Shown here one piece after another: positions 3,467 to 53,453 of a stretch of DNA of 64,000 nucleotides (the first letter of the stretch is position 1; each line of letters starts with the position of its first letter). The stretch is taken from the NCBI GenBank assembly GCA_963708075.1, contig OY970194.1, forward strand, positions 3,904,001 through 3,968,000, written 5' to 3'. The notes under the pieces were generated by a model. That model made no database searches and was not told the origin of the DNA. It worked only from the letters and a program-made list of their open reading frames with translations. Both the position numbers and the translations under genes were made by a program. The stretch is from Sedimentisphaerales bacterium. Lineage in GTDB: Bacteria; Planctomycetota; Phycisphaerae; Sedimentisphaerales; Anaerobacaceae.

Positions 3467-3499
3467 GGGTGCGTTTGACACCAGGTGCATGTAGAGCGT

Positions 3500-5854: not shown

Positions 5855-5877
5855 GTCTTTCCTTCGCCGACGACCGG

Positions 5878-7872: not shown

Positions 7873-7888
7873 AGTGTCGTAATCTCTC

Positions 7889-9440: not shown

Positions 9441-9469
9441 TGTCTTGAGTCCGGCGATTTATCGAGGCA

Positions 9470-10903: not shown

Positions 10904-10915
10904 AGTCTCTCCAAT

Positions 10916-12958: not shown

Positions 12959-13067
12959 GATGGGTCACACCCCTGCCCAAACCGTTTGGAAACATACCTG
13001 ACAATCGTGATTGTGCAACGTTGATCGCTCTGCGTCAACCTAACCACATGGCGAGGACGATGGTACA

Positions 13068-14507: not shown

Positions 14508-14511
<4 letters not shown>
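13068..14511 (-). CDS. Tat-exported sulfatase (iduronate-2-/choline-sulfatase-like); frameshift near 13164
   Basis: MKRREFL Tat motif, [23 protein letters not shown]; corrected tail KINAPERP...[10 protein letters not shown] ends at 13068. Confidence 0.9.
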
Positions 14512-15921
<1,410 letters not shown>

Positions 15922-15939
15922 ACGGAGAATATCCTTTGG

Positions 15940-17469: not shown

Positions 17470-17522
17470 GCCTCTTCCATTCCAACCTTCAGCGAAGACT
17501 GAGCCGGTCACGTCTGCCCTCT

Positions 17523-36343: not shown

Positions 36344-37951
36344 CTTCTCTCCTGCTTCGATGCGGTCTTCTTTTGCGCGGCCTCTGCGAGAGGATAGCGG
36401 CGGACCTCCACGTCGTTCTTCTGCTTCCCGCCCGGCGTGCTGCGGCCATCCGTGACAACTTTCTCCATCAAGGCACGCATCTCGGCGACGAGCTCAGGCT
36501 TCTCTGCGGCAAGGTTCGTCTTTTCACCGATATCGTCAGCAAGGTTGTAGAGCTGGACATCGGTCCTTGCTTTCGGGTCTTGCTCCAGGATGAGTTTCCA
36601 CGGGCCACGACGCAGACCGGGAACACCGTTGGATGCACAACTGACGGCATGTTCGCGAACCGGCTGGTCCCCGCCCTTGAGCAGCGGCAGCAGGCTGAAG
36701 CTGTCCTCGCCGGCATTGTCCGGCAATCTCATGCCAAGAACATCGGCCAACGTGGCGATGAGATCGGCGTGGTGAACGAGCTGCTCGCACACCGCACCCG
36801 GTTTTACCTCGCCGGGCCAGCGTACGATGAACGGCACGCGATGCCCGCCTTCGAACACAGCCCCTTTGTAGCCACGGAGCGGACCGCTCGGAAAATGGCC
36901 CTTCATTTCGAGCTCGTCCGCGCCGATGTAGGGAGCACAGCCATTGTCGCTGGTGAACAAGACGATGGTGTTCTGGGCCGCACCACTTTCGCGCAGCGCC
37001 TCGAGCACACGACCCACCACGGCGTCGGTTCTCCATCACGAGATCGGCATAGAGGTTCAAGCCGCTCTTGCCGAGCCAGGGCCCGTTCACGGCCAAGGGC
37101 GTGTGCGGAGACGTGAGTGGCAAATAGAGCAGGAATGGCTGCTTCGCCCTCACTTGGCGATGGATGAAGTCCACTGCACGGTCGCCAAGCGTGGGGAGGA
37201 TAGCTTCGAGCTGCCAGTCCCGCAGCGCCGGCCCTTGAAGACTGGCCTGGTTCGTCGCCAGCTTATCCACCGGCAGCAACTCGCTCGGGATGCCCACGGT
37301 GCGGTCGTTCTCGATGAAACAATATGGCGGCCAATTGGGCACATCGGTACCGAAGTACTCGTCGAAGCCGCGCGTGGTCGGCCCGCCCGGGATGGGTCGG
37401 GAGAAAACGTCTCGCCACGTCGCACGGTGCGCATCGGTGACGGTGGTGGAGACCTGGCCGCCACCGCCGGCCTGGCCGCCGAACCCGGTGAAGTGCGGCC
37501 GCTGTTCCTCCGTGATCGGCCAGTCGCGACCGAGATGCCATTTGCCGATGCACGCGGTGCGATAGCCGTGCTGCCTGGCGAGGCCGGCCACTGTGAGCCG
37601 GTCCGGTGCGATGAGCGGCGCACCCCATACGGAAACGATCCCTTGCTGCAGCCGCGACCGCCAATGATAGCGGCCCGTCAGCAGCGTGTAACGTGACGGC
37701 GAGCACACGCCGGAACTGGAGTGGGCGTCCATGAAGCGCATTCCCTCAGCAGCCAGGCGGTCCACATTCGGCGTGGGAATCTTCCCGCGTTGCGGATTGT
37801 AACAGTGAACGTCGCCGTAACCCAGGTCATCGGCGAGGATGATGACGATGTTGGGCTTGCCCGAGGAAGCTGCCCGGGATATCGCCGGGACGGCGCCAAT
37901 CCCCACTCCGACCACCAGCGCCAACGTGATGAATGAGACTCGATGTTCCAT
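36340..37951 (-). CDS. Arylsulfatase A-like sulfatase; frameshift at about 37029
   Basis: VCSPSRYTLLTGR, GKWHLG; the ORFs join as VMETDAVVGRVL after removing one base. Confidence 0.9.
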
Positions 37952-37957
37952 GTCACG

Positions 37958-37966
37958 ATTATAGCA
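37958..37966 (-). promoter_or_regulatory. Extended -10 element, probably giving a leaderless mRNA
   Basis: Minus strand TGCTATAAT 6 nt upstream of the ATG at 37951; no RBS. Confidence 0.5.
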
Positions 37967-38465
37967 CCCTCGCTGCCCCTTTGCAGCAGGCAATATGTGG
38001 CGTGGGGACATCCCATAGAGTACAGGTATTGTCCCATCGTAAGTAGATATGACTGTAGAACTTGCGACATCGCCCGGCGGAAGCATTTGCCTCACCTTCT
38101 TGGTCGATGAGCCTCTATGAACCATGAAACAGAATCTGTGGCGCAAAGAGGTATATCGACCGCTGTGACGCAGAGATTGCTGGAGCACTCCGGTCCACAG
38201 CTCACCAATGACGTATGCACAAATGTCGATCCCGTGCTGTGTCAGGCGATCAGTTAGTTGCTGGTGTCGGAATGGGTTTGATGGCCATCTGACAGTGGTC
38301 GATCTCACCGAGCGACTGCGATTCAGATAGTCTCCGTGGAAGACCTGGCCGGTCATGGAGATGGGCACAAGAATCCTTTTCGGAGGTTGTGCCAGTGCCC
38401 CTATTTCCATGCAGGCAGGTGCGTCAGCTATGTCAGAATAGATCCAGAGTATACAGGAGGGGACC

Positions 38466-38496
38466 CATATGATAGTATTTCAATAAGTATCATATG
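38466..38496. promoter_or_regulatory. AT-rich palindrome, candidate operator upstream of the mqn-like operon
   Basis: CATATGATA-13 nt-TATCATATG perfect 9-bp inverted repeat. Confidence 0.45.
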
Positions 38497-38690
38497 TTAC
38501 GGGTGGGCCCGTGAGTTGAACCGGGGGTAAGTAGCCTGCGTATGCATCCGAGCCTTAGCCTCCGGGCAGAGGCTCTTGCAGATGCGTTGGTAAGGCCTGT
38601 TACGAGATCGGCCTTGACGTGGATTGCTACCGTGGCGGTAGTCCTTTGCCTTGACCGACTCGATTATTTTGGACTCCGACTCATAAGCTT

Positions 38691-39491
38691 ATGAACACAG
38701 TCCAGGCATACAGATTCTGCGTCCTTCCCTACGCCAACGCCCTTCCCCTCGTCCACTTCATGACAGACGTCTATCCCCCAGCGAAGCTGTTTTACCGTGT
38801 GCCACGATCAGCGGTCGGAGGCTTGTTAGAGGGCGTAGTTGACGCGGCGTTGATTCCCATTGTCGATTGCTTCGCCCATCCCGATCTCGTGATGATTCCG
38901 GGATTGGGCATTTGTGCCGACGGCGACGTTACGAGCGTTCTCCTGCAATGCCGTCGGCCGCTGTCGCAGGTCAGAGTCGTCGGACTTGACCCCGAGTCCA
39001 GAACATCGAATACCCTCGTCCAAGTGCTGATGCGGGACCACTTTCGGATCTCTCATCGCGTTGAATACAGCCTGTGTGATGATGAGGCGGATGCCTGCGT
39101 GTGCATCGGCGATCGCGCCCTGTGTGCGGCGCCGGCGGTGGAAACGTATGATCTCGCCGGGGAATGGAAGAAGATGACCGGCTTACCGTTCGTCTTCGCC
39201 GTCTGGGCTGTGCAGCGGTCGTGCCCTGATCTCGAGGAAATCTCGTGGATTTTGCACCGCGTCAGGGATCGTGGATGCCACGCCATTGGCGAACTGGCAC
39301 AGCTCTGTGCGCAGCGGCTGGGTCTGCCTGAGAACCGTTGCCATGAGTACCTTGCGAATCGCCTGTACTACGATGTGGGGCCCGCGGAATGTGAGGGCAT
39401 GGGCTTGTTCCGAGGTCTCGCCGCGAGCCTCGTCAGACAAGGGGCAGACCACAGACAAGGGCAGAATACCCCAGTCCCCGAGTGGAGTTGA
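38691..39491 (+). CDS. mqnA: Chorismate dehydratase (futalosine pathway)
   Basis: YANALPL, ICADGDVTSVLL, SRTS, IGDRAL, DLAGEWKKMTGLPFVFAVW. Confidence 0.93.
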   Translation: MNTVQAYRFCVLPYANALPLVHFMTDVYPPAKLFYRVPRSAVGGLLEGVVDAALIPIVDCFAHPDLVMIPGLGICADGDVTSVLLQCRRPLSQVRVVGLDPESRTSNTLVQVLMRDHFRISHRVEYSLCDDEADACVCIGDRALCAAPAVETYDLAGEWKKMTGLPFVFAVWAVQRSCPDLEEISWILHRVRDRGCHAIGELAQLCAQRLGLPENRCHEYLANRLYYDVGPAECEGMGLFRGLAASLVRQGADHRQGQNTPVPEWS

Positions 39492-39492
39492 C

Positions 39493-41670
39493 ATGTTACA
39501 ACAATGGAATGAACGAATCTCCCCGGAAGAGGCGCTGAACCTCTTGACAAAAGCGGACACGGCCGAGCTGATGGCCCGGGCTGATAAGGTCCGCCGGCAA
39601 AGACACGGTGCGAACGTCTACCACGTGCACAGTCTGAACCTGAATCCCACCAATCTATGCGAGAATCGTTGCGGCTTGTGTGCATTCTGGCGCGAAGCCG
39701 GGTCGGGCGAGGCTTATACACTAAGCCTTCAGCAGGTTGAGGAAAGGCTCGAGAGAGCCAGAGGATGGGGACTCACCGACGTTCACATCGTCGGCGGCCT
39801 GAACCGGGAATTGGGCCTTGACTACTATGTCGAGTTGCTTCGCATCACCAAGCGGGTGCTGCCCACGACAGCGATACAAGCCCTGACTGCCGTCGAGGTC
39901 CAGTGGCTTTCGGATCGTGCCGGCAAATCAGTGGCCGAAGTGCTGGCAATGCTGAAGGCAGCCGGCCTGGATGCCCTGCCGGGCGGAGGAGCGGAGATCT
40001 TCTCCACACGGGTCCGAGAGAATATTTGCCCAAAAAAGCTTCCCGCTGATCAATGGCTCCATGTGCACCACATCGCCCACGACCTGGGTATCCCGAGCAA
40101 CGCGACCATGCTCTTCGGACACGTCGAAACCCCGGAAGAGATCGTGGACCATCTATGCAGACTCAGGACTCTGCAGGACCAGACCGGAGGTTTTCAGGCC
40201 TTCTGTCCTCTTCCTTTCCACGCGAAGGGCACGCAGATCGGTGTGGCGCGAGGTCCGGGCGGGCATGCCATCGCCCGGATCGTGGCCCTGGCCCGCATCT
40301 TTCTCGACAACTTCCCGCATGTTCGAGTCCTGGCCAATTTCCTCGACCGCAAGCTGCTGCAGACGTTGCTTTTCTGCGGGGCCGACGACATCGGCGGCAC
40401 CAGCATCGACGAGCAGATCGCTCGCTCAGCCGGAGCTTCCGACGACTGCTCGTTCCACGACCCTGAGGAGATGGCGACTTTCATACGGGAACTTGGACTT
40501 CGTTCGGTACTCACGAGCAGCCTGTATGACCATCGCAGCCGAAGACAACCGCAGGCGCAGGTCCCGTTGCTCGCTTCAAAGGCGGCAAGGGCTTTGCAGA
40601 AAGCAGAGGCTGGACAGCGGCTGAACGCCGAGGAAGCGACATGGCTCCACGATACCCTGCCGTTCTACGAACTGGGACGGATCGCCCATGAGCATCGCCG
40701 GCAAGTCATCGGCGACCAGCGATCCACGTTCATCATCGATAGAAACATCAGCTTCACGAACGTCTGCACCGTCGGATGCAAATTCTGTGCGTACCACAAG
40801 GGGCCCAGGGATGGCGATGCATTCACGATGTCGATTGAAGAGATCGTGCGACTCGTGGAGGAGGCGGCCGGCCTCGGCGCCACCCAGATCATGCTTCAAG
40901 GCGGCCTGAATCCGGCCCTGAGTTTCTCCTGGTATAAGGACATGCTTCGGGCCATCAAGGATCGTGTCCCCGCTGTCTGGCTGCATTCGCTGTCCCCCGC
41001 GGAGGTGCTGTGGCTCGCGCAGCGCTCCCATCTGCCCCTCAGGGACACCCTTGTGCAACTGCGAGAGGCCGGCTTGGATTCGCTACCGGGAGGCGGCGCC
41101 GAGATTCTCGTGGATGAGGTTCGCCAAAGAGTCAGCCCGGCGAAGATCACGACCCCTCAGTGGCTTGAAGTCATGGAGATAGCCCACAGTCTGGGTATGG
41201 GCACGACGGCGACGATGGTCTATGGCCTGGGCGAGACGACAGCCGATCGCGTGCAACACCTGCTGCACGTCCGCGACCTTCAGGATCGCACCGGGGGCTT
41301 CCGGGCCTTCATTCCCTGGAGTTTTCAGTCGAATCACACCCGGCTCTCCGAGCGGCCGCAAACCGGCGTGGATTACCTTCGCATGGTCGCCCTGTCCCGC
41401 CTGGTTTTGGATAATGTTGAGCACATCCAGGCCGGGTGGGTCACCGAGGGACCGTATATGGCCCAGATCGCCCTGACTTTTGGAGCGGACGACTTCGGCG
41501 GCGTCCTGATGGAAGAGAGCGTGGTCAAGGCCACCGGCATCAATCACACCGTGACGGCCGAACAAGTAATCGCCCTGATCGCCGAGACCGGGATGACCGC
41601 CGCCCAGCGAGATACGGAGTACAAGACTCTTCGAACCTTCGACAGGCAAAGGACCCTGAAAAGCGCGTGA
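39493..41670 (+). CDS. mqnE-mqnC: Fused double radical SAM protein: aminofutalosine synthase MqnE-like (N) + cyclic dehypoxanthine futalosine synthase MqnC-like (C)
   Basis: Two CxxxCxxC motifs (NPTNLCENRCGLC; DRNISFTNVCTVGCKFC), two PGGGAEI motifs, SNATMLFGHVE, FIPWSFQ, IQAGWVTEG, GADDFGGVLMEE. Confidence 0.88.
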   Translation: MLQQWNERISPEEALNLLTKADTAELMARADKVRRQRHGANVYHVHSLNLNPTNLCENRCGLCAFWREAGSGEAYTLSLQQVEERLERARGWGLTDVHIVGGLNRELGLDYYVELLRITKRVLPTTAIQALTAVEVQWLSDRAGKSVAEVLAMLKAAGLDALPGGGAEIFSTRVRENICPKKLPADQWLHVHHIAHDLGIPSNATMLFGHVETPEEIVDHLCRLRTLQDQTGGFQAFCPLPFHAKGTQIGVARGPGGHAIARIVALARIFLDNFPHVRVLANFLDRKLLQTLLFCGADDIGGTSIDEQIARSAGASDDCSFHDPEEMATFIRELGLRSVLTSSLYDHRSRRQPQAQVPLLASKAARALQKAEAGQRLNAEEATWLHDTLPFYELGRIAHEHRRQVIGDQRSTFIIDRNISFTNVCTVGCKFCAYHKGPRDGDAFTMSIEEIVRLVEEAAGLGATQIMLQGGLNPALSFSWYKDMLRAIKDRVPAVWLHSLSPAEVLWLAQRSHLPLRDTLVQLREAGLDSLPGGGAEILVDEVRQRVSPAKITTPQWLEVMEIAHSLGMGTTATMVYGLGETTADRVQHLLHVRDLQDRTGGFRAFIPWSFQSNHTRLSERPQTGVDYLRMVALSRLVLDNVEHIQAGWVTEGPYMAQIALTFGADDFGGVLMEESVVKATGINHTVTAEQVIALIAETGMTAAQRDTEYKTLRTFDRQRTLKSA

Positions 41671-41678
41671 CACTGCCA

Positions 41679-43166
41679 ATGACAGCCCATGAGACGGTTC
41701 TACTGACAGGCATCACAGGGTCCATCGGAAGCTGGGTCGCCGGAACGATCCTGCAGGACGGCGGGCGAATCGTGGCCATCGTCCGGGCCGATACCGAGTC
41801 TGCCGCTGCCGCCCGAGTGCGCGAGGCACTGGCGGTCGTTAGCGTCCAAGAGCACGCCGATCATGTCAAGGCGGTGTGCGGGGACATCTGCGACGGCCAG
41901 CTTGTTGGACATCTCATCAGGGGGGAGACGGGAATATCGCACATCGTGCACTGCGCCGGCATGGTGGAGTTCGGGCAGGAGTTCGCGGCGTTGAGCCATC
42001 GAGTCAACGTGGAGGGAACCGCCAACCTGCTGACGCTGGCCGAGAAGCTCAGGGTCCCCTTTTGTCATTTCAGCACCGCCTACGTTGCCGGCGACCGACA
42101 GGGGCGGGTGTTCGAACATGAGACTTCTATGGGTCAGCAGTTCCACAATCCCTATGAGTCTTCCAAGTGCCAGGCCGAGTTGTTGGTCCAAGACTGGGCG
42201 ATGCGCACAGGTCTTGGTGCGTTCATGTTCCGGCCGAGCATCGTTGTCGGGGATAGTCGGCAAGGACGCATCGTCCACTTCGACGGGCTCTACAACTTCA
42301 TGCGCATGCTCGACAGCGTCGCAGGGGCCGTCGGCACGCGAGAGTTCCGTGTCGTAGCCAACCCGGATGCGACGAAGAATCTTGTGCCCGCCGACTACGT
42401 GGCCCGTGCCGCCTGGCACATTATCAGGACAAGTGCTCCCCGGACCTACCATATCACAAATCCTCAGCCAGTGTCGCTTGCAGTGCTCCGGGACATCTTT
42501 GCCGATCTGTTCGCCGTCCCCGGGGCACGGCTTGTGCGGGAGGAGGAATTCCGTCGGAAGAAACCCGATAGATTCGAGTCGATGTATCAAAAAGCGGCCG
42601 TTCAGTATGCCCCGTATCTGGCCGCAGAGCCGGTTTTTGACCGGACGAACACAGACACTGCCCTGCGTGACACTTCCCTGATGCCGCCGGAGATGAATAT
42701 GGCTTTCTTTCAAAAACTGCTGGACTATGCACGAAGAACCAAGTGGGGCAAGGCACACACGGAGCCTCCTGTCATGCTCCCGGGGCGAGAAAGATTCGTG
42801 GAACAGTATTTCGACAGCTTCCTGACCGAGAAGATGCACCAGCAACTGCTGCCCAACCTTAAGCATCTGACCGCAAGCTGCCGGATTGCCGTGGAAGACT
42901 TGCCCGGGCGGTCGTGGTCGCTGAGAATCGACCAGGGCCGGCTTGAGGAGATATCGCAAAATGGCATGGTCTGTCAGTGCACGTTCTCCCTCCACAGCGA
43001 CACCTTCTCGGCGATTGTCGGCGGCAGGCTCGCCCCGCAACAGGCATTCTTTCAGAGGAAGATCCATATCGCAGGCGACATGGAGACGGGCCTGAAATTG
43101 GCCACTGTCCTGGCGGCGTTCTTCAAGAAATGGCCCTACGACATGGAGACGCACCGTGTGGGATAG
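41679..43166 (+). CDS. Extended SDR (thioester/acyl-CoA reductase-like) fused to a C-terminal SCP2 lipid-binding domain
   Basis: TGITGSIG, STAYVAG, YESSK, RPSIVVG; C-terminal IVGGRLAPQQAFFQRKIHIAGDM SCP2 signature; alternative GTG start at 41667. Confidence 0.85.
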   Translation: MTAHETVLLTGITGSIGSWVAGTILQDGGRIVAIVRADTESAAAARVREALAVVSVQEHADHVKAVCGDICDGQLVGHLIRGETGISHIVHCAGMVEFGQEFAALSHRVNVEGTANLLTLAEKLRVPFCHFSTAYVAGDRQGRVFEHETSMGQQFHNPYESSKCQAELLVQDWAMRTGLGAFMFRPSIVVGDSRQGRIVHFDGLYNFMRMLDSVAGAVGTREFRVVANPDATKNLVPADYVARAAWHIIRTSAPRTYHITNPQPVSLAVLRDIFADLFAVPGARLVREEEFRRKKPDRFESMYQKAAVQYAPYLAAEPVFDRTNTDTALRDTSLMPPEMNMAFFQKLLDYARRTKWGKAHTEPPVMLPGRERFVEQYFDSFLTEKMHQQLLPNLKHLTASCRIAVEDLPGRSWSLRIDQGRLEEISQNGMVCQCTFSLHSDTFSAIVGGRLAPQQAFFQRKIHIAGDMETGLKLATVLAAFFKKWPYDMETHRVG

Positions 43167-45334
43167 TCTCACGACAATCCTGGCCGACAGAAGTCGATGG
43201 ATCGCCGTGGCCTGCCTGTGCAGCGTCGCGATTCCCGTCTATTGGCTCAGAAATGCCCGCGTCGATAACTCAATCGAGGTGTGGACGGGGACAAGGAGCA
43301 GGACGCACCGCAGCTATCAGCAGTTCCTAGAGAAATACGGGAACGAGGAGTTCGTCGTGATTGCCGGCGAGGCAGAGGACCCGCTCTCCGAGGAGACATT
43401 GGCCTTTCAGGGCGACCTGGCGTCGCGCCTGCGACAGATCGATGGGGTGGAAGGCGTTCTGGATATTACGCAGGCGGCCGCCGCCTTCGAAAAGTACAGG
43501 CCCGAGGACTGGAAAGAGTCTCTCAGCGGCACCGGCTTTTTTCGGAATCTGCTGCTCGGCAAAGATGGACGCACATTCGGCGTCATCGCCTGGCTGCGGA
43601 AGATTGATGATCCCCCTTCGAGAAGGCTCGTGGTCGAAGAGATCGAGTCGGCGGTTGCCCAAGTCGCCGGTGACGGGAGGCAGATGCATCTGGCCGGGAC
43701 GCCGCTATTGAACGTAGCCCTCGACCGCGGCTCCCAGGAAGCATCCCGGCGGATTCTGCCCGCGGCCCTGGCTGTCTCCCTGGTTATTCTGGCGATCGTT
43801 CTGCGACGCGTCAGTGGAGTCATCGCGGTGATGGCCGCGGTGGGCGTGACCACGCTCTGGACTGTTGGCCTGATGGTTCTGGCCGGCAGAACCTTCAACA
43901 TGGTAACGGTGGCTCTCCCTTCCCTGCTGACGGTTCTTTCGCTCTCGGCCGGGATTCACATCGTCTTGCGAATCCAGTCGCTGCTGGCTGACATGGGGGA
44001 CCGCCGCGCCGCCGTGCGCGAGACTATTCGGGAAGTATTGCCGGCGGTTCTTCTATCGAATGTCACCACGGCCATCGGATTCGGCTCCTTGATGATCTCG
44101 GACATGCAGCCTGTCTCGGACTTCGGGTTGTTCGCCGCCGTCGGCATGATGCTCTCATTCCTTTTCAATGCGACCATGGTGCCGGGAATTCTCTCCTGGC
44201 TGCGTCCTGGTGCTATCACAGTCTCTGCGAGAACCGACGCACTGGACCTCGCCCGTGGGGCGGGCCGTCGCATCACGAAGAATCTGGTTCCTGGGCTCCG
44301 CGCTCGTCATACTGGTCGTCTCACTGCTGCTTATGACGGGACTTCGCGTGGAGTCGAATGTGCTGAAGTTCTTCCCGGCCGATTCAAAGGTCCGCCGGGA
44401 TTACCAGTTCGTTGCCGAGCAGCTCACGGGCCTGTACACCATCGAGCTCGATGCCGTGACCGACTCGCAGAACGGGAGCGTCCTGCTCAAGCAGATCGAG
44501 CAGCTAGGCACTGAACTGGCCGCGCGATCCGAGGTGGCTCAGGTGATTCACTACAAAAGTATCGCCACCGCCCTGGACCCAATTCGCCAGTCTGTTTTCG
44601 TCGAGACGGCCAGGGCTTCGGAGAATCCCCTGAAGCTCCTGGCGAAGAAATACCGTCATGCGGACGACGGTCGAATCTCGCTGCGAATGTCGATCCTGGT
44701 GCGTGCAATGTCAGGCACGGACTTCTATGCCTTGATGGATTTCGCACAGCAGGCGGCACAGCGGCTTGAGCCTCCGGCCACATACACGCTGACCGGCGTG
44801 GTCCCGCTGCTGAATTCGGCCCAGCGATCTCTGATCACCACGCAGGTCCGCAGTTTCGCCACAGCGGCAATCACAGTGCTGGCCCTGGTTGGCCTGTTCT
44901 TCTGGTCCTGGAGGGTCTTCCTCGCGGCCGCACTGCCCAATCTGCTCCCGACGGCGATCCTCTTTGCCGCGATGGCGGTTCTGAAGATACCCTTGGACGC
45001 GGCGACAGTCATGATCGCAGGCGTAGCTATCGGCATCGCCGTCGATGATACTTTCCACTTCTTCTCCTGCTACCGCGAGGCGAGGCAATCCGGGCAGGAC
45101 AGCCCGACGGCGATTTACAACAGCTTTCGCACGACCGGACGAGCCATCTTGTTCACGTCCGTCGTCGCCACCGCCGGCTTTGTCATTCTTCTGCTGGCCG
45201 AGTTCAAGCCGATCCAGTACTTTGGCCTTCTGGCCGGCGTGACCATGCTCACAGCCAGTGCGGCCGATTTCCTCGTGCTGCCGGCCTGCGTGGCTTCTGT
45301 GAACCTGTGGCATCGACAAGGGCAAGAACAGTGA
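43156..45334 (+). CDS. MMPL/RND-family transporter; frameshift at about 44232
   Basis: Two repeats of TM + soluble loop + 5 TM; TTAIGFGSL, IGIAVDDTFH, DFLVLPA. Confidence 0.88.
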
Positions 45335-46413
45335 ACGTGAAATCATCGTTTCTCGTCAGACTTGAGCACGTCCTTCGAATCCACTTCGATGCCAATCGCG
45401 GTGCGCCCTATTGGCTCGAGAAACAGCGTGAGCTTGGGATCGACGCCATCGAACACATTCGAACCATCGAGGACCTCGCCCTCCTCGGGCCTATGGATGA
45501 GCGTGCGCTGTCCGAGCGCCCTATCGAGGATTTCATTCCCAGGGTATTTCGCGAAAACAACGATCATCTTCTCGCCGAGACAGCCGGGACCCTGGGCAGG
45601 CCTAAAACCGCCGTCCACAGAGCGGATGAATTCGAAGCGGCCTTCATCGTGCCATTCGTCAAGGCCGCCGGCAGAGCGGACTTTCCCGAAGGCGGCCACT
45701 GGCTGTTCATCGGGCCGACAGGGCCACACATCATCGGCCGGGCGGCACGGCGGTGCGCCAGAGCCCTTGGCGCCGCGGACGCATTCACGGTGGATTTCGA
45801 TCCGCGATGGGCCAAGAAACTCCCGGCCGGCAGCTTCGCCGCGAAGCGATACCTGGCGCACATCGAGGAACAGGCTTTGGCCGTTCTCGAAGTCCAGAAT
45901 ATCGAGGTGCTCTTCGTGACGCCCGCTGTCTTAAGCAGTCTGACCGAGAGAATCAGCGAGGCGAAGCGCATGGCCATTCGCGGAATCCACCTGGGCGGCA
46001 TGGCAGCCTCGGCCGAGTTCATGCAGCGCACGACGGGACTGTTCCCCAACGCAGTGATCCTGTCAGGCTACGGCAATACTCTGTTTGGAATGATGCCGCA
46101 ACTTTGCTACTCGCATGAGACAGGTTTCGACTACTTCCCGCATGGCGACCGTCTCGTCGTTCGCCTGATCCCACTGTGCGAGGATGGGGACAAGCCGGAA
46201 ACCGCCGCCCATGTCGATTACGGCCGGCGGGGCCGGGTCATGGTGCACCGGCTGGATGAAATGCAGTTTCTGCCGAACCTGCTCGAACGGGACACCGCCG
46301 TACGGATTCCTCCGGAGCCCAGCGCCGCAGCCGACGGCTTCTTCCAGGATGGTCTCCGCGACCCGCAGCCGATCGTCAGCGAAACCATGAAGCCGGCCAT
46401 AGGATTATATTGA
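45331..46413 (+). CDS. EhpF/GriC-like aryl-carboxylate adenylating protein
   Basis: HF...GAPYWL, ETAGTLGRPK, GPTGPHIIG, VDFDPRWAKK, GYGNTL, LERDTAVRIP and C-terminal GLY match my recollection of the phenazine EhpF/grixazone GriC family. Confidence 0.78.
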   Translation: MNVKSSFLVRLEHVLRIHFDANRGAPYWLEKQRELGIDAIEHIRTIEDLALLGPMDERALSERPIEDFIPRVFRENNDHLLAETAGTLGRPKTAVHRADEFEAAFIVPFVKAAGRADFPEGGHWLFIGPTGPHIIGRAARRCARALGAADAFTVDFDPRWAKKLPAGSFAAKRYLAHIEEQALAVLEVQNIEVLFVTPAVLSSLTERISEAKRMAIRGIHLGGMAASAEFMQRTTGLFPNAVILSGYGNTLFGMMPQLCYSHETGFDYFPHGDRLVVRLIPLCEDGDKPETAAHVDYGRRGRVMVHRLDEMQFLPNLLERDTAVRIPPEPSAAADGFFQDGLRDPQPIVSETMKPAIGLY

Positions 46414-47123
46414 TGTTGCAAGCTGCATCGGAAGAACATGTGACGTTCCTGAGCGGAGCGGTTCGGCTCAGAGGAGTCCTCTCCTACCCGGAGCAGGCCC
46501 GGCCGGAGCTTGCGGTGCTGTTGTGCTCTCCGCACCCGCACTTTGCCGGTGACATGAACAACAACGTGATCTGCGCCGTCGCCCAACGTCTCGCCGCTCG
46601 CTGCGCGGTCATGCGATTCGATTACCGGGGTGTCGGGGAAAGTGAGATCAGCCTGGGGCCCGACGAGTCGGCCTTTGACTACTGGAATGAGATTGAGGAG
46701 ACGAAGGATTATCGCGATGCCGTCGAGGATGTCGCTGCGGCGGCCCGGGCACTGCTCGCGGCGACGGAGTCTCTCGACGTGGGCCTGTCAGTCGTGGGCT
46801 ATTCGTTCGGTGCGGCCACAGGCATGCTCTTTGCCTGCCACGAGAGCCGCGTGGAGAAGATGGTTGCGATCGCCCCGCCGCTGGGCAAGGTGCCTTTCGA
46901 ATTCCTTTCGGATTGCTGCAAGCCCAGCCTCCATATAGCCGGGAGGAACGACTTCCTGTATTCGGATGAGAAGATGGCCGCGTTTCGTCGGTCCGTTGGA
47001 CCGGCGGCGAGAGTTGTGGTCCTGGATGAGGCGGACCACTTCTTCCGAGGCGACGAGAACTCGGTGGCACGACAAATCGAGGAATATCTGCTTGGTACAA
47101 AAGGAAATCAGCATGGGTCTTGA
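46413..47123 (+). CDS. Alpha/beta hydrolase (COG2945-like)
   Basis: PHPHFAGDMNNNV, RFDYRGVGES, GYSFG nucleophile elbow, ADHFF. Confidence 0.88.
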   Translation: MLQAASEEHVTFLSGAVRLRGVLSYPEQARPELAVLLCSPHPHFAGDMNNNVICAVAQRLAARCAVMRFDYRGVGESEISLGPDESAFDYWNEIEETKDYRDAVEDVAAAARALLAATESLDVGLSVVGYSFGAATGMLFACHESRVEKMVAIAPPLGKVPFEFLSDCCKPSLHIAGRNDFLYSDEKMAAFRRSVGPAARVVVLDEADHFFRGDENSVARQIEEYLLGTKGNQHGS

Positions 47124-49080
47124 GAAGAAACCCGAGATTCTCGCTCCGGCCGGCACGCTGGATGCGGTCCGCCAGGTGATCGATGCCGGCGCCGACGCTG
47201 TCTACGTCGGCGGCAAGGGTCTCAATATGAGGCAGCATCGGTCAAGCTATAACCTGACCGAGCCGGAGATCGCCGAGGCAATCGAGCTCGTTCACCGCGA
47301 GGGCAAGAGGCTCTATTTCACGCTGAATAGTCTGATCTTCGATTCGCAGCTCCCGCAGTTGCGGGAAGTTCTGGCCATGCTCGGCCGGCTCGGCCCCGAC
47401 GCCATCATCCTCCAGGATCTGGCCGTGGCAAGCCTGGCTCGGGAGATTTGCGTGCACGTGCCGCTCCACGCCAGCACGATGATGAACGTGCACAATGCGG
47501 AAACCGCCCTGGCGCTGAAGATGATGGGATTTGTGCGGGTCATTCCGTCCCGCGATATCCCGCTCCACGAGATCCGTCGTATCGGCGAGCGCTCGGGCCT
47601 GGAGATGGAGTGTTTCGTCCATGGCGATATGTGCATCTCGCAAAGCTCGCAATGCTACCTCAGCGGGATTCTCTTTGGCGAAAGCGCCAACTGCGGCCGC
47701 TGCATGAAGCCGTGCCGGTGGCAGTGGAAACTGGCCGTCCGTCAAGGCGACGGCGAATCGCTCGATCATGGAGAGGGCTACCTGCTGGCCCGCAAGGACC
47801 TGTGCATGCTGCCGCACATTCCGGCACTGGTCCAAAATGGCATCGCTGCCCTGAAGATCGAGGGCCGGATGCGGACGGCGGAGTTCCTGGCCCCTGTCGT
47901 GGCTCTTTATCGCAAGGCGATTGACTCCTATTTTGAAGATCCCGTGGGCTACACCACGAACGCGGGCGATATCCACAACCTCATCTCGCAACGCGTCCGC
48001 GAGATGACCACCGCGCACATGTTCGCCAATCCCGGCCGCGAGGGCGTTGACACGACGGGCAAGCGAGAACCCCGTTTCTTCAGCCATGCCTCCCCGGCCG
48101 CGCAGTTGACGGTGGGACAAGACGTGGCTCCGCACACCCCTGCAAAGTGGCCCGAACTGATCGTTCATGTCTCAACCGTGGCCGGGGCTGAAGCGGCTGC
48201 CGGCGCCGGCGCGAACGCGATCTACTTTTGTGGCGAAGGCTTCTGTCTGCACGGGGGAGTCCCGAGTGCGGAGGCCATCGGCAGCTTCGCCCGCAAGGCT
48301 GCTCAGAACAGCATTCGTATTGGTGTGATGATGCCGCACGTTTGCGATGAGCGGGACATGGCGGAGTGGAGGCGCCGCCTGCACGAACTCATCGCCTGGG
48401 GGAATCTCACCGTCGGTGTGTCGAATCTGGGCAGCCTGCAGATGGCTCGTGAGGAAAGGTGGCGTGACATCTTGACGGATTACCCGCTGAACACGGCCAA
48501 TTCCATTGCTGTCGATGAGCTTTCGACCCTTGGGGCACAGCGCGTCACGGCCTCGGCGGAGCTCACTTTTCAGCAGTTGTCTGCGTTCACAAAGGCGGTG
48601 CGGATGCCCATCGAGATCATCGGCCAAGGCCCAGTTTGTGGCATGCTGCTGGAGCATTGCGTGTTGGCGACTGCCGGCGGGCAGAACCCGCAGGGTGTTT
48701 GTTCGATGCCGTGCCGACGGGGTGTCTACGCACTGGAGGACACAGCATCACAGATCTTTCCGCTGGAGACGGACCGTCGTTGCCGCAATCATATCTTCAC
48801 GCCGGCGGATGTCTGCGTGTTGCCCAATCTCTCGCGGATGCTGTTGCTGGGCATCTCCGGCTTGCGGATTGAAGGCCACTTGGACAAGCCTGAAACGGTC
48901 GCAATCGTCACGCAAATCTATCGTGAAGCGATGGACTGTTTGAGAAATGGCCAAGCCATCGATGTCGCCGACGGGCTCTCGAAGATCTCCGCCGCCACAG
49001 AGCGCCCGCTCAGCGACGGGCCTTTTGACTTCCAGTCCATCAGGGTGATAGACAAGGAGAAAGAGCTTGCCCGAACATGA
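47113..49080 (+). CDS. U32-family Fe-S protein with two tandem U32 domains (O2-independent hydroxylase family)
   Basis: PEILAPAG, HASTMMN, Cx6Cx15Cx3C, LKIEGRMR; second domain Cx6Cx13Cx3C and LRIEG. Confidence 0.87.
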   Translation: MGLEKKPEILAPAGTLDAVRQVIDAGADAVYVGGKGLNMRQHRSSYNLTEPEIAEAIELVHREGKRLYFTLNSLIFDSQLPQLREVLAMLGRLGPDAIILQDLAVASLAREICVHVPLHASTMMNVHNAETALALKMMGFVRVIPSRDIPLHEIRRIGERSGLEMECFVHGDMCISQSSQCYLSGILFGESANCGRCMKPCRWQWKLAVRQGDGESLDHGEGYLLARKDLCMLPHIPALVQNGIAALKIEGRMRTAEFLAPVVALYRKAIDSYFEDPVGYTTNAGDIHNLISQRVREMTTAHMFANPGREGVDTTGKREPRFFSHASPAAQLTVGQDVAPHTPAKWPELIVHVSTVAGAEAAAGAGANAIYFCGEGFCLHGGVPSAEAIGSFARKAAQNSIRIGVMMPHVCDERDMAEWRRRLHELIAWGNLTVGVSNLGSLQMAREERWRDILTDYPLNTANSIAVDELSTLGAQRVTASAELTFQQLSAFTKAVRMPIEIIGQGPVCGMLLEHCVLATAGGQNPQGVCSMPCRRGVYALEDTASQIFPLETDRRCRNHIFTPADVCVLPNLSRMLLLGISGLRIEGHLDKPETVAIVTQIYREAMDCLRNGQAIDVADGLSKISAATERPLSDGPFDFQSIRVIDKEKELART

Positions 49081-50359
49081 GCCCATAGGCCCGCAGGCGA
49101 TTCTGGCCAAGAAGCAGCAATACCTGATTCCCTGCTCGTACCATTTCTACAGGGATCCGCCTCAAATCGTGCGCGGCCAGGGGATCTACGTGTACGATTC
49201 CGCCGGCCGCAGGTACATGGACCTCTACTCCGGCGTGAGCGTTCATGCGCTGGGCCACTGCCATCCGGAGATGGTCGAGGCCATCTGCCAGCAAGTCAGA
49301 ACCCTGCAACATACAAGCACGATCTACCTGACAGAGCCCATTGTGAACCTGGCCGAGCAACTGGCGAAGGTGCTTCCCGGGCAGATTCGCAGGACTTTCT
49401 TCTGCTGCAGCGGCAGTGAAGCCAATGAAGGGGCGGCTTTGCTGGCGACGCTCCATACCGGCCGAAGCGAGTTCCTGGCCTTCCAGAATGGCTTGCACGG
49501 CCGCACGAAGTTGGGCATGAGCCTGACAGGCCTTGGTCTTTGGCGCACCGATCCCAACCCTGTCGGCGGGATTGTGCACGTGCCGCCGCCGCACTGCCGA
49601 AGTTGCCCGTTTGGGCAAAGTCTCGGCCAATGCCAATATCAGTGTGTCGCCGCTGTGGAGACCGCCATTCGCACGGCCACCAGCGGCAAGCCCGCCGCCA
49701 TGTTCGTCGAGCCCGTGCAAGGCAATGGCGGCATCATGGTCCCGCCGCCGGAGTACTTCCCCAAACTGCGTGAGGTCCTGAACCGGTACGGCATGCTGCT
49801 CATCGCTGATGAAGTCCAGACGGGTTTTGGACGCACCGGCAGAATGTTCGCTATGGAGCATTGGAACATCGCGCCCGATATTGTCACGGGCGGCAAGGCG
49901 CTGGGCGGGGGCACACCGGTGGGTTTCTTCTCCACGACCGACCAAATCGCCGCTAGTTATACCAGGCCCGGCGCATCGACCTTCGGCGGCAATCCCGTGA
50001 CGGCTCAGGCAGGCCTCAAGTTCCTGGAGATCCTGCAGCGTCAAGCCCTGGTGGACCACTGTGCCCGGATGGGAACCCTGTTACAGGGTCGCCTCAAGAA
50101 AATGGCTGAGAAGTCCGATATGGTCTCGGACGTTCGGGGTCTCGGATTGATGGTGGGGGTTGAGATCGCCGGGCATGGAACGCTATCTGCCGCCGAATGT
50201 ACGGATCGTATCCTAGAACGCATGAAAGATGTGGGGTATTTGCTGGGCAAGACCGGCCCCAGCCGCAATGTCCTGACATGGATGCCCCCTCTGATCATTC
50301 GACAAGAAGAGCTGATGGAGGCTATCGACGCCCTTGAGAAGACTCTCCAAAGTCTGTGA
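49067..50359 (+). CDS. Class III PLP aminotransferase
   Basis: SGSEANE, EPVQGNGG, IADEVQTGFGRTG, PDIVTGGKALGGG, STFGGNP; TTG start with AAGGAG RBS. Confidence 0.93.
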   Translation: MPEHEPIGPQAILAKKQQYLIPCSYHFYRDPPQIVRGQGIYVYDSAGRRYMDLYSGVSVHALGHCHPEMVEAICQQVRTLQHTSTIYLTEPIVNLAEQLAKVLPGQIRRTFFCCSGSEANEGAALLATLHTGRSEFLAFQNGLHGRTKLGMSLTGLGLWRTDPNPVGGIVHVPPPHCRSCPFGQSLGQCQYQCVAAVETAIRTATSGKPAAMFVEPVQGNGGIMVPPPEYFPKLREVLNRYGMLLIADEVQTGFGRTGRMFAMEHWNIAPDIVTGGKALGGGTPVGFFSTTDQIAASYTRPGASTFGGNPVTAQAGLKFLEILQRQALVDHCARMGTLLQGRLKKMAEKSDMVSDVRGLGLMVGVEIAGHGTLSAAECTDRILERMKDVGYLLGKTGPSRNVLTWMPPLIIRQEELMEAIDALEKTLQSL

Positions 50360-51329
50360 CTCCCGGAGGCAGCCCGTTGCCAGGCTGCTCCTGGCAATAG
50401 CGGTATTCGCCATTCTCCTGGCGAGCTGCGCCTCATTCAAGCACCTGACGCTGGTGAGCAACACATTCCCGAGCGCCAAGGATTGTGGCAAATGCCACGT
50501 TGAGATCTACCATGAGTGGTCGCAGTCGGACCATGCTCACGCCTATACGAACCTGCACGTTCGGGCAGCAACAGATGATTACAGGTTCGAGAGCTGCCTG
50601 AGCTGCCACTCGCCCGAACCCACGCTGACGGATCGCGCTCCCACCGTTCGGGCGGCCGGCCGTGAGGAAGGGGTCACCTGCGTCGCCTGTCACCTCGATC
50701 AGGGTGCTCTTGCGGGTCCGCTGGAGCCGACCGGCAAAGTTCATCCGCATCCGATCAGCGTTCGGCCGGAAATCTACCACAGCAGTGGCATTTGCGGCCG
50801 ATGTCATGAAGGCACCATGACGCAGTGGGAATCAGTCCATGTGGAAAAACGAACTTGCCAACAGTGCCACATGGAATCCGTCACACGCAAGGTCACCCAG
50901 GCCACGGGCGGAATATCCAATGTCCTGGTGGCCATGGAGAAACAGGTCCCCCAGAGACGCCACAAGTTCTGCATTCTCGGCGACGCGCAATCACAAGAAC
51001 TCGTCACCCTGACGATCGAATCCTTGGGCGGCACGCTCGATGTTGTGGTCGAGAACAACCTGCCCCACAGCCTTCCGACAGGCGATTTCGGCTTTCGAAT
51101 CGTGACTCTGGAAGTCTTCGGCATCGACGCCGGCGGCAAGTCGATTCTCGCCGGAAGCTGGGAACTGGCTGGGGAATCCTCGACCGCCATTCCTGCGCAA
51201 GGGGCACGAGCGTGGTCATTGGATATCGGCCCCGGCTGCAAAACGGCCCGCGCCGTCCTGACTCGACGCAGCTACGACCAGGAGGCTCTCGTGCTGGCGG
51301 AGGCACAGGTGGAGGTGGCGAAGCCATGA
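50334..51329 (+). CDS. Pentaheme cytochrome c lipoprotein
   Basis: Lipobox LASC; CGKCH, CLSCH, CVACH, CGRCH, CQQCH; PHSLPTGD; start uncertain. Confidence 0.87.
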   Translation: MRRLSKVCDSRRQPVARLLLAIAVFAILLASCASFKHLTLVSNTFPSAKDCGKCHVEIYHEWSQSDHAHAYTNLHVRAATDDYRFESCLSCHSPEPTLTDRAPTVRAAGREEGVTCVACHLDQGALAGPLEPTGKVHPHPISVRPEIYHSSGICGRCHEGTMTQWESVHVEKRTCQQCHMESVTRKVTQATGGISNVLVAMEKQVPQRRHKFCILGDAQSQELVTLTIESLGGTLDVVVENNLPHSLPTGDFGFRIVTLEVFGIDAGGKSILAGSWELAGESSTAIPAQGARAWSLDIGPGCKTARAVLTRRSYDQEALVLAEAQVEVAKP

Positions 51330-53308
51330 AGAAGGAGACGATTCGTCGCTTCACCCGGCCGGAATTAGGGCTACACTGGAGCCAGGCAGTGCTATACATC
51401 CTGCTGTTCGGCTCGGGCACGCTTCTGCTGGTCGGGCGAATCCTCGATCATCCGCTCGCCTCTCAGAAGTCTCTCGGGGCGCTCCACCGCGTTGCGGGCG
51501 TCGCACTTGTCGTACTCCTGGGCCAGGCTCTGTTGCTCAGTATCGTTGCGGACAACTTCCGCAGCTTCTGGCGCACGCTGCGAGAGTGTCTGCGCTGGCG
51601 ATGGGGTGACGTCGTCTGGCTCGTCAAAGTCCCGTTCAATGCCATCACGCGACGAGTGAAGCTGCCGCCCGCGGATCGCTTCAACGCGGGCCAGAAGCTC
51701 CACGTGCTGGTCATCGTCTGTGTGCTGGTCGGCTTCAGCATCTCGGGCCTGCTGATGATGCTCATACCCGGAGCGCTCGGGCCATGGATCATCCACCTGA
51801 TCTGTTTCATCCCGGCCGCCGCTTTCCTGGCGCTGCATCTGTTCCTGTCACTCCTGAATCCCGAGACTCGAAAGGCCCTCCCGTCGATCTTCTCGGGCCA
51901 CATGTCGTTGGAACTCGCTCGACGACACCACGGTCTGTGGGCAGGACAACCCGACTCGGCGGAACACCCATCCTATGTATCCCTCCGGATGGTGCTCATC
52001 ATGATCGCTCTGGTAATGGTCGTCGCCGGGGTCTTCGCGATATGGTATGGACCGGCAAAAGTCTCCGGCGTTGTGGCAGCCACAATCACCCGCCACGGCA
52101 CAAATGCAATCACGCCGGCGTCTCTTTCCAAGGTCCATGACGGTGACAACGCGGATACCGACAACTGCGCATCTTGCCATTTGCCGATGGCATCGCCGCC
52201 TTCGGAGAAATGCCTTGTCTGCCACACGGAGATCCAGGAGCGAATGACGGCCGGATCGGGCTTCCATGGCAAGATTGCCGGCTCGTGCAGACAATGCCAC
52301 ACGGAGCACAAAGGCACCGAGGCCATCCCCATATCACTGGACCGACAGGCATTCAACCACGGCAACACCAACTTTCCGCTCGATGGCAAACACCAGGCCG
52401 TGCCATGTGAGAAGTGCCACGAAAGGACCGGCCCGGACACTGCCGGCAGAATGCAGTACACCGGGCTTGACTACAAGAGTTGCATAAATTGCCACTACAA
52501 CCCGCACAATGACCCGCGCGCCAGCCACTGCCTCGAATGCCACACTATGCAAGGCTGGGACCGCGATAATCTGACGTTCGATCATGATCGTGACAGCCAA
52601 TTCCCACTCCTGGGTGCACACGCCAAGCCGGATTGCGAGAAATGTCATCCCCGCCAGACAACAAATGGCCGGGTGCAGGTCCGCCTGTTTGACGTTGGCA
52701 AGTCCTGTCAGGATTGCCATGCCGACCCGCATGCCGGCCAGATGAGCTCTGCGTGCGGCACCTGCCACACGGAGACAGGCTGGACCGGGAACAACCTCGT
52801 ATTCTCGCATGATAAGCACTCATCGTTCCATCTGGATAGGCTTCATTCCTCAGCGAGTTGCGATGACTGCCATGGCCGACAGGCCAGGCGTTATCGTCCG
52901 CTGCCACGCGAATGCGACACGTGCCATACGATCCAACAGGCCGCCATGCAGGGAACCGCACGGGTGCTCTCCGGGCCCCCTGATCCTCACAATGACCGAC
53001 TCTCCTGCACGGATTGTCACGATGTGAACACACCAAGACAACGCCAGGAGGAGTTCGCCGCCAGGTGTGCAACCTGTCACAATTCCCGATATGGCGCCCT
53101 GTTCTACTCCTGGGCGAATGCTCTTGATGAAAACCGTGCTTCAATCAAACAGAACCTGAAACGCATCGATGATCCGAATGACGCGAGAAGGCTCCGGCTC
53201 GAGCAAATCCTGGAAGATGCGGCCGCAGCAGGTTTCCACAACCTGAATCTGACTCAGGAGATCTTGCGGGCAGAAACTCCGACACATCCAGAGAACGTCA
53301 ACAAATAA
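51326..53308 (+). CDS. FdnI-type diheme cytochrome b fused to a 13-heme cytochrome c domain
   Basis: LHWSQ, LHRVAG, RFNAGQKL, IHL, LHLFL, HHGLW; fifth TM helix; 13 CxxCH motifs with FxH..FPLxGxH repeats. Confidence 0.9.
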   Translation: MKKETIRRFTRPELGLHWSQAVLYILLFGSGTLLLVGRILDHPLASQKSLGALHRVAGVALVVLLGQALLLSIVADNFRSFWRTLRECLRWRWGDVVWLVKVPFNAITRRVKLPPADRFNAGQKLHVLVIVCVLVGFSISGLLMMLIPGALGPWIIHLICFIPAAAFLALHLFLSLLNPETRKALPSIFSGHMSLELARRHHGLWAGQPDSAEHPSYVSLRMVLIMIALVMVVAGVFAIWYGPAKVSGVVAATITRHGTNAITPASLSKVHDGDNADTDNCASCHLPMASPPSEKCLVCHTEIQERMTAGSGFHGKIAGSCRQCHTEHKGTEAIPISLDRQAFNHGNTNFPLDGKHQAVPCEKCHERTGPDTAGRMQYTGLDYKSCINCHYNPHNDPRASHCLECHTMQGWDRDNLTFDHDRDSQFPLLGAHAKPDCEKCHPRQTTNGRVQVRLFDVGKSCQDCHADPHAGQMSSACGTCHTETGWTGNNLVFSHDKHSSFHLDRLHSSASCDDCHGRQARRYRPLPRECDTCHTIQQAAMQGTARVLSGPPDPHNDRLSCTDCHDVNTPRQRQEEFAARCATCHNSRYGALFYSWANALDENRASIKQNLKRIDDPNDARRLRLEQILEDAAAAGFHNLNLTQEILRAETPTHPENVNK

Positions 53309-53358: not shown

Positions 53359-53453
53359 TGTCACGGGCAGCAAGATTCACCGCCGGCCGGAAAACAGCGC
53401 AGAGATACAGGATATGCTCTATAATGCGAGAGGCCTATGTTCGGAGATCGTCC

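Follow-up and report, generated by a model that had tools for sequence, protein, structure and literature searches.

The ten genes at positions 38691-53308 of the window (the whole 64,000-nt stretch of DNA analysed here, to which plain coordinates refer) join early enzymes of the futalosine pathway with tailoring enzymes, a transporter of the MMPL family, and multiheme cytochromes. In our estimate, there is about an even chance that this operon, carried by the genome designated below as G000, is a self-contained cassette, which makes a non-canonical, membrane-bound naphthoquinone and brings its own transporter and quinol-oxidising cytochromes. A more general proposal, in which an as yet undescribed respiratory quinone is made by Planctomycetota, marine anammox bacteria among them, is possible but clearly more tentative. 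Such a quinone would be a menaquinone-type lipid in which the C6 carbon is kept as an aminomethyl or formyl group, with an extra hydroxyl in anaerobes; it would be served by its own transporter and quinol:cytochrome c oxidoreductase, and the whole set would be gained and lost as one cassette.

Gene content of the operon

All ten genes lie on the plus strand (Table 1). The sequence-only reading of this DNA described them as overlapping or 1 nt apart, and our direct reading of the open reading frames (ORFs) bore out all of its coordinates and junctions: successive genes are separated by a 1-nt gap or overlap by 1 to 26 nt, and their starts are plausible. Every family name given in that reading agrees with the results of Pfam, NCBIfam, and PDB searches, and a motif scan indicates that the catalytic motifs are intact across all operon enzymes. 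The absence of MqnB/MTAN, MqnD, UbiA, UbiD/X, and MenG from the operon, which it had also pointed out, was confirmed.

Table 1. Features of the operon and the region upstream of it (positions in the window)
Feature	Position	Strand	Basis of assignment
Intergenic region from the divergent sulfatase gene to mqnA; presumed promoter region	38411..38690		Read directly
MqnA, chorismate dehydratase family	38691..39491	+	PF02621 134.7 bits; sole PF02621 member of the genome
Fused MqnE (aminofutalosine synthase)::MqnC (cyclic dehypoxanthinyl futalosine synthase), radical-SAM (S-adenosylmethionine)	39493..41670	+	TIGR03700, TIGR03699
Thioester-reductase-type short-chain dehydrogenase/reductase (SDR)::SCP2 lipid-binding domain	41667..43166	+	PF07993 125.6 bits, PF02036 54.5 bits
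MMPL/HAE3 transporter of the resistance-nodulation-division (RND) type	43156..45334	+	PF03176 on both halves; two frames, 43156-44514 and 44168-45334
EhpF/GriC/ThnN-type truncated ANL adenylating enzyme, 360 aa	45331..46413	+	PDB EhpF match; TAGTLGRPK motif
Small alpha/beta hydrolase	46413..47123	+	Pfam abhydrolase families; GYSFG nucleophile motif
Double U32 protein, four-cysteine motif per half	47113..49080	+	PF01136 342 bits in 2 stretches
Class III (omega-type) pyridoxal phosphate-dependent aminotransferase	49067..50359	+	PF00202 342 bits; TGGKALGGG motif
Pentaheme c-type cytochrome, predicted lipoprotein	50334..51329	+	5 CxxCH; lipobox LASC at residue 29; Cytochrome_C7 and C554 families
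Membrane cytochrome b (PF01292, FdnI/HydC type)::13-heme c-type domain	51326..53308	+	PF01292 52.7 bits; 13 CxxCH

The best PDB relatives of the first gene product are MqnA structures (2i6e, 6o9a, and 7ahr; E values of 3e-20 to 1e-17), and there were no MqnD structures among its PDB matches. In the long ORF that follows, TIGR03700 spans residues 80-420 and TIGR03699 residues 449-786, the MqnC half scored alone reaches 455 bits vs. the NCBIfam cut-off of 428, and two CxxxCxxC motifs, CENRCGLC and CTVGCKFC, are present. The SDR portion of the reductase is of the NAD_binding_4/thioester-reductase type, with the motifs TGITGSIG and YESSK. The EhpF/GriC-like ligase of the sequence-only reading proved to be a full-length EhpF relative: a profile built of the window protein and 14 homologues matched the EhpF structures 3l2k/3hgu over residues 7-359 with an E value of 9e-42. 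The aminotransferase matched no NCBIfam equivalog at its cut-off, and the PigE model is among the weaker matches of its orthologue from locus L076. The models nearest to the MMPL transporter are TIGR00921 (HAE3) and HpnN, both below their cut-offs. Five hydrophobic segments were found within the first 250 residues of the cytochrome b::13-heme protein.

The family of the transporter gene stood as first assigned, with one correction. The gene consists of two overlapping ORFs in different frames, with one extra base at about 44232 in the window as compared with three relatives; in relatives, it is a single ORF of 726-761 aa. The extra base is absent from a contig of run X4, which is 95-99% alike, and the near-identical run X1 does not cover this position. 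Two other genes of the same one-contig assembly, those of NuoH (G000:C1:7217835-7218724) and COX1 (G000:C1:7205179-7206431), are likewise split across frames, which makes an assembly indel at 44232 likely. The occurrence of three frame-split genes suggests single-base assembly indels rather than three pseudogenes.

Conservation of the cassette in Planctomycetota

Of 8000 candidates scored in a search with the adenylase, 1013 were homologues at E <= 0.001. The best of them are 60-90% identical and, where named, are labelled Phycisphaerae or Planctomycetes. An alignment-based scan of species genomes provided 76 loci, and tblastn searches with the window proteins and a few locus proteins provided the following counts, which cover the available stretches; contig ends truncate many of the loci. 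The adenylase gene is accompanied by that of the reductase in 62/76 loci, the aminotransferase in 58/76, the hydrolase in 56/76, and MMPL in 44/76; we refer to these five genes (EhpF-type adenylase, thioester-reductase::SCP2, alpha/beta hydrolase, class III aminotransferase, and MMPL) as the core cassette. The double U32 gene is present beside the adenylase gene in 35/76 loci, any Mqn gene in 38/76, and the cytochrome genes in 28/76, so that Mqn genes or cytochromes occur in 60/76 loci and neither in 16/76. The association of tailoring genes, exporter, and cytochromes with futalosine genes, noted at first in the window alone, is thus a conserved one, which takes four gene orders.

Type I, seen in the window and in Phycisphaerae-labelled metagenome-assembled genomes (MAGs), has the order mqnA, mqnE::C, reductase::SCP2, MMPL, adenylase, hydrolase, double U32, aminotransferase, pentaheme, and cytochrome b/multiheme, and is complete in L013, L015, L016, L020, and L022. 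In type II (Scalindua and other Brocadiia; Pfam assignments), the genes of reductase, SCP2, MMPL, adenylase, double U32, TPR protein, aminotransferase, PetB, PetD, pentaheme cytochrome, and NapC-like multiheme cytochrome follow each other, with the hydrolase gene further on. Genes of a histidine kinase, a sigma-54 activator, and a response regulator precede the cassette in a Scalindua sediminis-labelled locus (L041:1631-5362). Type III, found in Gemmataceae-, Pirellulales-, and Planctomycetaceae-labelled MAGs, comprises reductase::SCP2, hydrolase, adenylase, MqnD, aminotransferase, sometimes DUF547, a 357-aa protein, MqnA, and MMPL. The identities of its MqnD and MqnA were confirmed against solved structures; for the 357-aa conserved partner, the ESM Atlas returned unnamed clusters only. 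Type IV, present in five sampled genomes, has the order TPR, reductase::SCP2, aminotransferase, MMPL, adenylase, hydrolase, pentaheme, and cytochrome b/multiheme.

In 27 loci, the genes of the adenylase and the aminotransferase have that of MqnD between them (the identity of MqnD was checked in one). In one Gemmataceae-labelled MAG (L052:11084-12556), MqnD and the start of the aminotransferase share one 490-aa frame, which reflects a gene fusion or else an artefact of sequencing. In genome G102, the cassette is joined with MqnE, MqnA, MqnC, a divergent MqnD, and the two cytochromes. An apparent MMPL::adenylase fusion of this genome was rejected, as the two are in different frames; P0122 and P0123, two long proteins with an MMPL part, include just 49% of the adenylase and are possibly artefacts of gene calling. 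There is one hydrolase::adenylase fusion (P0121, 674 aa).

The distribution of the operon among close relatives was followed in 40 genomes and G000, of which 23 others (G001-G023) belong to the same genus. PF02621 is present in 9/41 and the adenylase in 6/41 of these genomes. Within the genus, adenylase and MqnA occur together in 5/24 genomes (G000, G003, G008, G009, and G015), while G005 has a differently scoring PF02621 member and no adenylase. PF02621 was found in only 5/23 congeners, MenG and a MenA-like gene in 23/23, and MenB above its cut-off in 0/41 genomes, G000 included. Most of the genus thus seems to retain only the last two steps of menaquinone synthesis, a possible sign of auxotrophy for the ring or of an unknown route to it. 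The operon behaves as an accessory cassette, since it is patchy in a genus that otherwise keeps only the MenA and MenG steps.

Across 121 evenly sampled Planctomycetota genomes, the adenylase scores were bimodal (>= 296 or <= 181 bits; the line was set after seeing the scores). PF02621 is present in 13/13 strong carriers (>= 296 bits) vs. 81/121 genomes overall. A weaker adenylase paralogue (28-30% identity) of four other Planctomycetota genomes has no cassette gene beside it. Five Planctomycetota genomes (G048, G051, G061, G078, and G153) lack both UbiD and the adenylase and have one PF02621 gene each, which by tblastn looks MqnA-like in three of them and MqnD-like in two; such genomes represent other incomplete futalosine sets.

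Quinone genes elsewhere in the genome

The source genome of the window, G000, is a 7.5-Mb sequence in one contig and is 92.8% complete. It contains one PF02621 gene, and its MqnE and MqnC occur only as the operon fusion. The idea of an extra pathway beside a separate housekeeping mqn set, which the sequence-only reading left room for, therefore has to be abandoned: these are the only mqnA/E/C copies in the genome, and the operon is the sole recognisable source of a naphthoquinone ring. MqnD was not found in G000, as no second PF02621 member exists and tblastn with a verified MqnD gave nothing at E <= 1e-4. PF01977, the family of UbiD-type decarboxylases (MqnL), had no match in this genome either; UbiX was not searched for. 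A search for MenB in G000 was negative as well. With no MqnD and no UbiD found, the canonical menaquinone route of G000 is incomplete. According to Table 1 of Zhi et al. (PMC3914697), 5/5 Planctomycetes proteomes have MqnA, MqnC, and MqnD, and G000 departs from this usual futalosine set.

Outside the operon, G000 encodes, above the NCBIfam cut-offs, a methylthioadenosine/S-adenosylhomocysteine nucleosidase (MTAN), a methylthioadenosine phosphorylase, two MenA-like prenyltransferases (TIGR00751, 110 and 108 bits vs. a cut-off of 102), and a MenG/UbiE methylase (241 vs. 158 bits). Genes of the quinone-dependent complexes, represented by NuoH, CydA, and COX1, are present as well. The sole MTAN-type nucleosidase (L089; G000:C1:2840420-2841304, minus strand) has a signal-peptide-like start, which ends in a lipobox-like LLTSC. 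If this enzyme is exported, the cytoplasmic conversion of aminofutalosine to dehypoxanthinyl futalosine would be left with no obvious enzyme.

Proposed pathway

In the pathway that we propose, chorismate and S-adenosylmethionine would be converted to the bicyclic ring in the futalosine manner by MqnA, MqnE::MqnC, and a nucleosidase encoded elsewhere, and the ring would be prenylated and methylated by the MenA-like and MenG enzymes, also encoded elsewhere. In the canonical futalosine pathway, the C6 carboxyl is kept on the ring until its removal by UbiD/UbiX. Here, the EhpF-type enzyme would adenylate this carboxyl instead, the thioester-reductase-type SDR would reduce the adenylated carboxyl to an aldehyde, with the SCP2 domain holding the lipid intermediate, and the class III aminotransferase may convert the aldehyde to an aminomethyl group. 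The action of a reductase and then of a class III aminotransferase is a common route from an acid to an amine, and SDRs of the thioester-reductase type are terminal components of non-ribosomal peptide synthetases and carboxylic acid reductases. In all four gene orders, SCP2 is fused to the reductase or encoded beside it, which argues for a lipid-bound acid as the substrate; the C6 carboxyl of a prenylated futalosine-ring intermediate would, we infer, be the most economical one.

The steps assigned to the adenylase and the reductase have a parallel in aromatic acid metabolism. Bera and colleagues are said to have proposed in 2010 that EhpF and EhpG turn an aromatic carboxylate into an aldehyde via an adenylate. 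In the Pantoea phenazine cluster and in a Streptomyces cluster for aromatic compounds, the EhpF-type gene is directly followed by a gene of an aldehyde-dehydrogenase-family reductase. One report (PMC3175449) describes EhpF-O as converting phenazine-1,6-dicarboxylate to the final product.

Both halves of the double U32 protein contain four cysteines (C174-x6-C181-x15-C197-x3-C201 in the first, C516-x13-C530-x3-C534 and C557 in the second), which are invariant in 8/8 aligned homologues; a phmmer search of PDB with this protein gave no match. Its gene occurs in types I and II, the record labels of which are those of groups that we take to be anaerobic; among types III and IV, only L066 has it. 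Such cysteine motifs bind 4Fe-4S clusters in UbiU and UbiV, and these two proteins act with UbiT, an SCP2 protein, in the O2-independent hydroxylation of ubiquinone intermediates (Pelosi et al., PMC6747719). By analogy, the double U32 iron-sulfur protein may be a fused, UbiU/UbiV-like, O2-independent ring hydroxylase, i.e., an intramolecular counterpart of the UbiU-UbiV pair. A hydroxylated or aminated product is predicted. A role of the U32 protein as a stand-in for MqnD was considered and rejected, since the two occur together in the complete Scalindua-like genome G066.

The MMPL/HAE3 transporter is predicted to flip or export the product. The cytochrome b::13-heme protein would oxidise the quinol at the periplasmic face and pass electrons to the pentaheme lipoprotein. 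Two unrelated kinds of cytochrome b occur in the cassette loci, the PF01292 type of the window and PetB/PetD of the Scalindua-like loci. As the unrelated PetB/PetD occupies the same place, quinol oxidation appears to be a part of the system and not a chance neighbour.

Weighing of alternative explanations

Several results weigh against the interpretation of the operon as a cassette for a non-canonical membrane-bound quinone. The proposed chemistry and product are deduced from gene content, and the predicted co-transcription of the ten genes from their overlaps. The transporter gene is frame-broken in the source assembly. The U32 protein scores below the NCBIfam cut-offs of UbiU (178 vs. 440 bits) and UbiV (60.5 vs. 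275 bits), and likewise of TrhP, and the SCP2 domain falls below that of the UbiT model (42.2 vs. 46.9 bits). The known partners of EhpF and GriC belong to the aldehyde dehydrogenase family and not to the SDR type encoded here. The substrate of the aminotransferase could be a ketone of the ring or of a side chain rather than the aldehyde. The MenA-like and MenG genes of the 23 congeners are present with or without the operon, and hence show no co-variation with it within the genus. UbiD is encoded by 11/13 strong adenylase carriers, with G000 and G102 as the exceptions, and the genomes of types II and III have MqnD; hence the cassette does not simply stand in for missing steps, and its role as a general UbiD substitute was rejected. 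Nor does our interpretation account for the lack of MqnD in G000.

These last results bear directly on an explanation that we regard as rather unlikely, in which the organism makes plain menaquinone by an odd route, with the cassette replacing the MqnD and UbiD/UbiX steps and the cytochromes serving as a menaquinone-dependent quinol oxidase. It would agree with the fact that the Mqn genes of the operon are the only ones of the genome, with the presence of MenA-like genes and MenG in G000, and with the need of Complex I, cytochrome bd, and haem-copper oxidase for a quinone pool; moreover, both cassette genomes devoid of UbiD keep all their Mqn genes beside the cassette. However, the remaining cassette genomes of the sample have UbiD, and MqnD is encoded by carriers among the aerobic planctomycetes and the Scalindua-like organisms, so that most carriers would have no need of the cassette. 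Neither an aminotransferase nor a ring hydroxylase has a place in the synthesis of plain menaquinone, which does not need a lipid exporter either.

Two further explanations retain the tailoring enzymes but change the product. An excreted soluble shuttle, i.e., a polar amino- or hydroxy-naphthoquinone pumped out of the cell and cycled by the multiheme cytochromes, would account for the exporter and the periplasmic multiheme cytochromes of the operon and has a precedent in ACNQ (2-amino-3-carboxy-1,4-naphthoquinone) of Shewanella (PMC6687433). Nevertheless, the reductase is accompanied by the lipid-binding SCP2 in each gene order, the nearest transporter models are those of lipid exporters (HAE3 and HpnN), and the fused cytochrome b belongs to a family with membrane quinol sites. 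Nothing in the operon speaks for an omitted prenylation, as MenA-like genes are present elsewhere in the genome. Because of the SCP2 domain, the HAE3/HpnN-type transporter, and the MenA-like and MenG genes outside the operon, a membrane-bound quinone is more likely than a freely diffusing shuttle, the first of the two options given in the sequence-only reading, and we consider the shuttle distinctly improbable. Least probable of all, in our view, is a non-quinone amino-lipid, in which a fatty or isoprenoid acid would be converted to an aldehyde and an amine and exported, the proximity of Mqn and cytochrome genes reflecting only the shared regulation of membrane functions. The set of hydrolase, short adenylase, and reductase may resemble the logic of the fatty-acid reductase LuxD/LuxE/LuxC, SCP2 and MMPL point to a lipid, and the 16/76 loci with neither Mqn genes nor cytochromes in the available stretch would fit. 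On the other hand, Mqn genes are found beside or inside the cassette in four arrangements, with the MqnD gene of 27 loci flanked by those of the adenylase and the aminotransferase, the solved relative of the adenylase and its annotated plasmid homologues belong to aromatic-acid pathways, and the futalosine family accompanies the adenylase in every strong carrier of the sample.

Genomic neighbourhood and upstream region

The AT-richer intergenic region upstream of mqnA contains a perfect 9-bp inverted repeat with a 13-bp spacer (38466-38474 and 38488-38496), which is a possible operator. Sigma-70-like sites of the plus strand were not found in 38411-38690, and terminator-like sites were not above shuffles in the same scan, which is uninformative for this phylum. 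The sigma-54 -24/-12 pattern had 73 matches vs. 73.4 expected, with none in 38411-38690. No Rfam family matched at E <= 0.1 over 36000-57000.

Nine sulfatase-family genes, genes of GH38-like and GH123-like glycosidases, and that of a RhaT-like transporter are located in 1700-17511 and 34781-38410. It is a sulfated-polysaccharide degradation neighbourhood, typical of Planctomycetota. A 784-aa protein encoded at 3503-5854 of the minus strand combines multiheme cytochrome c families (C7 and MtrC-like) with HEAT and many TPR repeats. Directly after the operon, an ORF of 945 aa (53424-56261, plus strand) with a signal-peptide-like start had no counterpart in Pfam, in NCBIfam, or, by tblastn, in the 76 related loci, which places it outside the conserved cassette.

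Significance

The redox span of a respiratory chain is set by its quinones, and it is rare for a new head group to be found. Across the phylum, the cassette links the futalosine pathway with ring tailoring, with a transporter of lipids, and with a cytochrome that oxidises quinol, and its carriers include anammox bacteria of the Scalindua type, whose electron-transfer chain is still unresolved. It also offers a testable answer to the question of how futalosine enzymes are put to use in an organism that lacks MqnD and UbiD. If the proposed function of the double U32 protein is true, O2-independent U32 hydroxylases would extend beyond ubiquinone and Proteobacteria. The patchy presence of the operon in a genus whose other members have MenA and MenG only points to quinone-ring sharing or auxotrophy in sediments. 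As for novelty, our literature search, with subscription journals outside its coverage, found no described cluster of such composition, in agreement with the sequence-only reading.

Comparison with known systems

The operon resembles the futalosine pathway (MqnA, MqnE, MqnB/MTAN, MqnC, and MqnD, followed by MqnP, MqnL/MqnM, and MenG) in its MqnA, MqnE, and MqnC, which have equivalog-level scores. It differs in the fusion of MqnE with MqnC, in six interleaved genes of other families, and in the lack of a detectable MqnD or UbiD in the whole genome. With EhpF/EhpG of the Pantoea D-alanylgriseoluteic acid pathway and GriC/GriD of the grixazone pathway, it shares a full-length EhpF homologue devoid of the ANL C-terminal domain and a reductase in the same operon. 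While the partner in those systems is an aldehyde-dehydrogenase-family enzyme encoded directly downstream, no member of this family was found in the operon with Pfam, and the SDR::SCP2 gene is separated from the adenylase gene by that of MMPL.

The likeness to the UbiT-UbiU-UbiV system lies in two U32 domains with four-cysteine motifs of the 4Fe-4S type and in an SCP2 domain encoded in the same operon. UbiU and UbiV form a heterodimer, whereas the U32 domains of the operon are parts of one polypeptide, and its SCP2 domain, unlike UbiT, is part of a reductase protein and keeps this association where U32 is missing from the gene order. The context differs as well: ubiquinone in Proteobacteria in the case of UbiTUV, and futalosine and naphthoquinone in Planctomycetota in the case of the operon.

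CbcL of Geobacter sulfurreducens is an inner-membrane menaquinol oxidase with a membrane b-type domain and a periplasmic multiheme c domain (PMC9129911). Compared by architecture alone, the cytochrome b::13-heme protein has the same arrangement, with 13 haem-binding motifs vs. the 9 c-haems of CbcL, and it is encoded within a quinone-biosynthesis operon together with a pentaheme lipoprotein. The transporter is related to the HpnN/HAE3/MMPL lipid exporters, as both its halves match the MMPL, HAE3, and HpnN models; its scores are far below the HpnN cut-offs, its gene is the one broken in the assembly, and its cargo is a predicted one.

Precedents for an amino group that gives rise to a distinct quinone electron carrier are provided by rhodoquinone and ACNQ. 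Rhodoquinone is an amino-quinone electron carrier, which receives its amino group from RquA. ACNQ of Shewanella is described (PMC6687433) as a soluble amino-naphthoquinone shuttle formed non-enzymatically from the menaquinone precursor DHNA (1,4-dihydroxy-2-naphthoic acid). The operon differs from both in encoding a class III aminotransferase, and the amino group of its product is predicted to be located on the side carbon.

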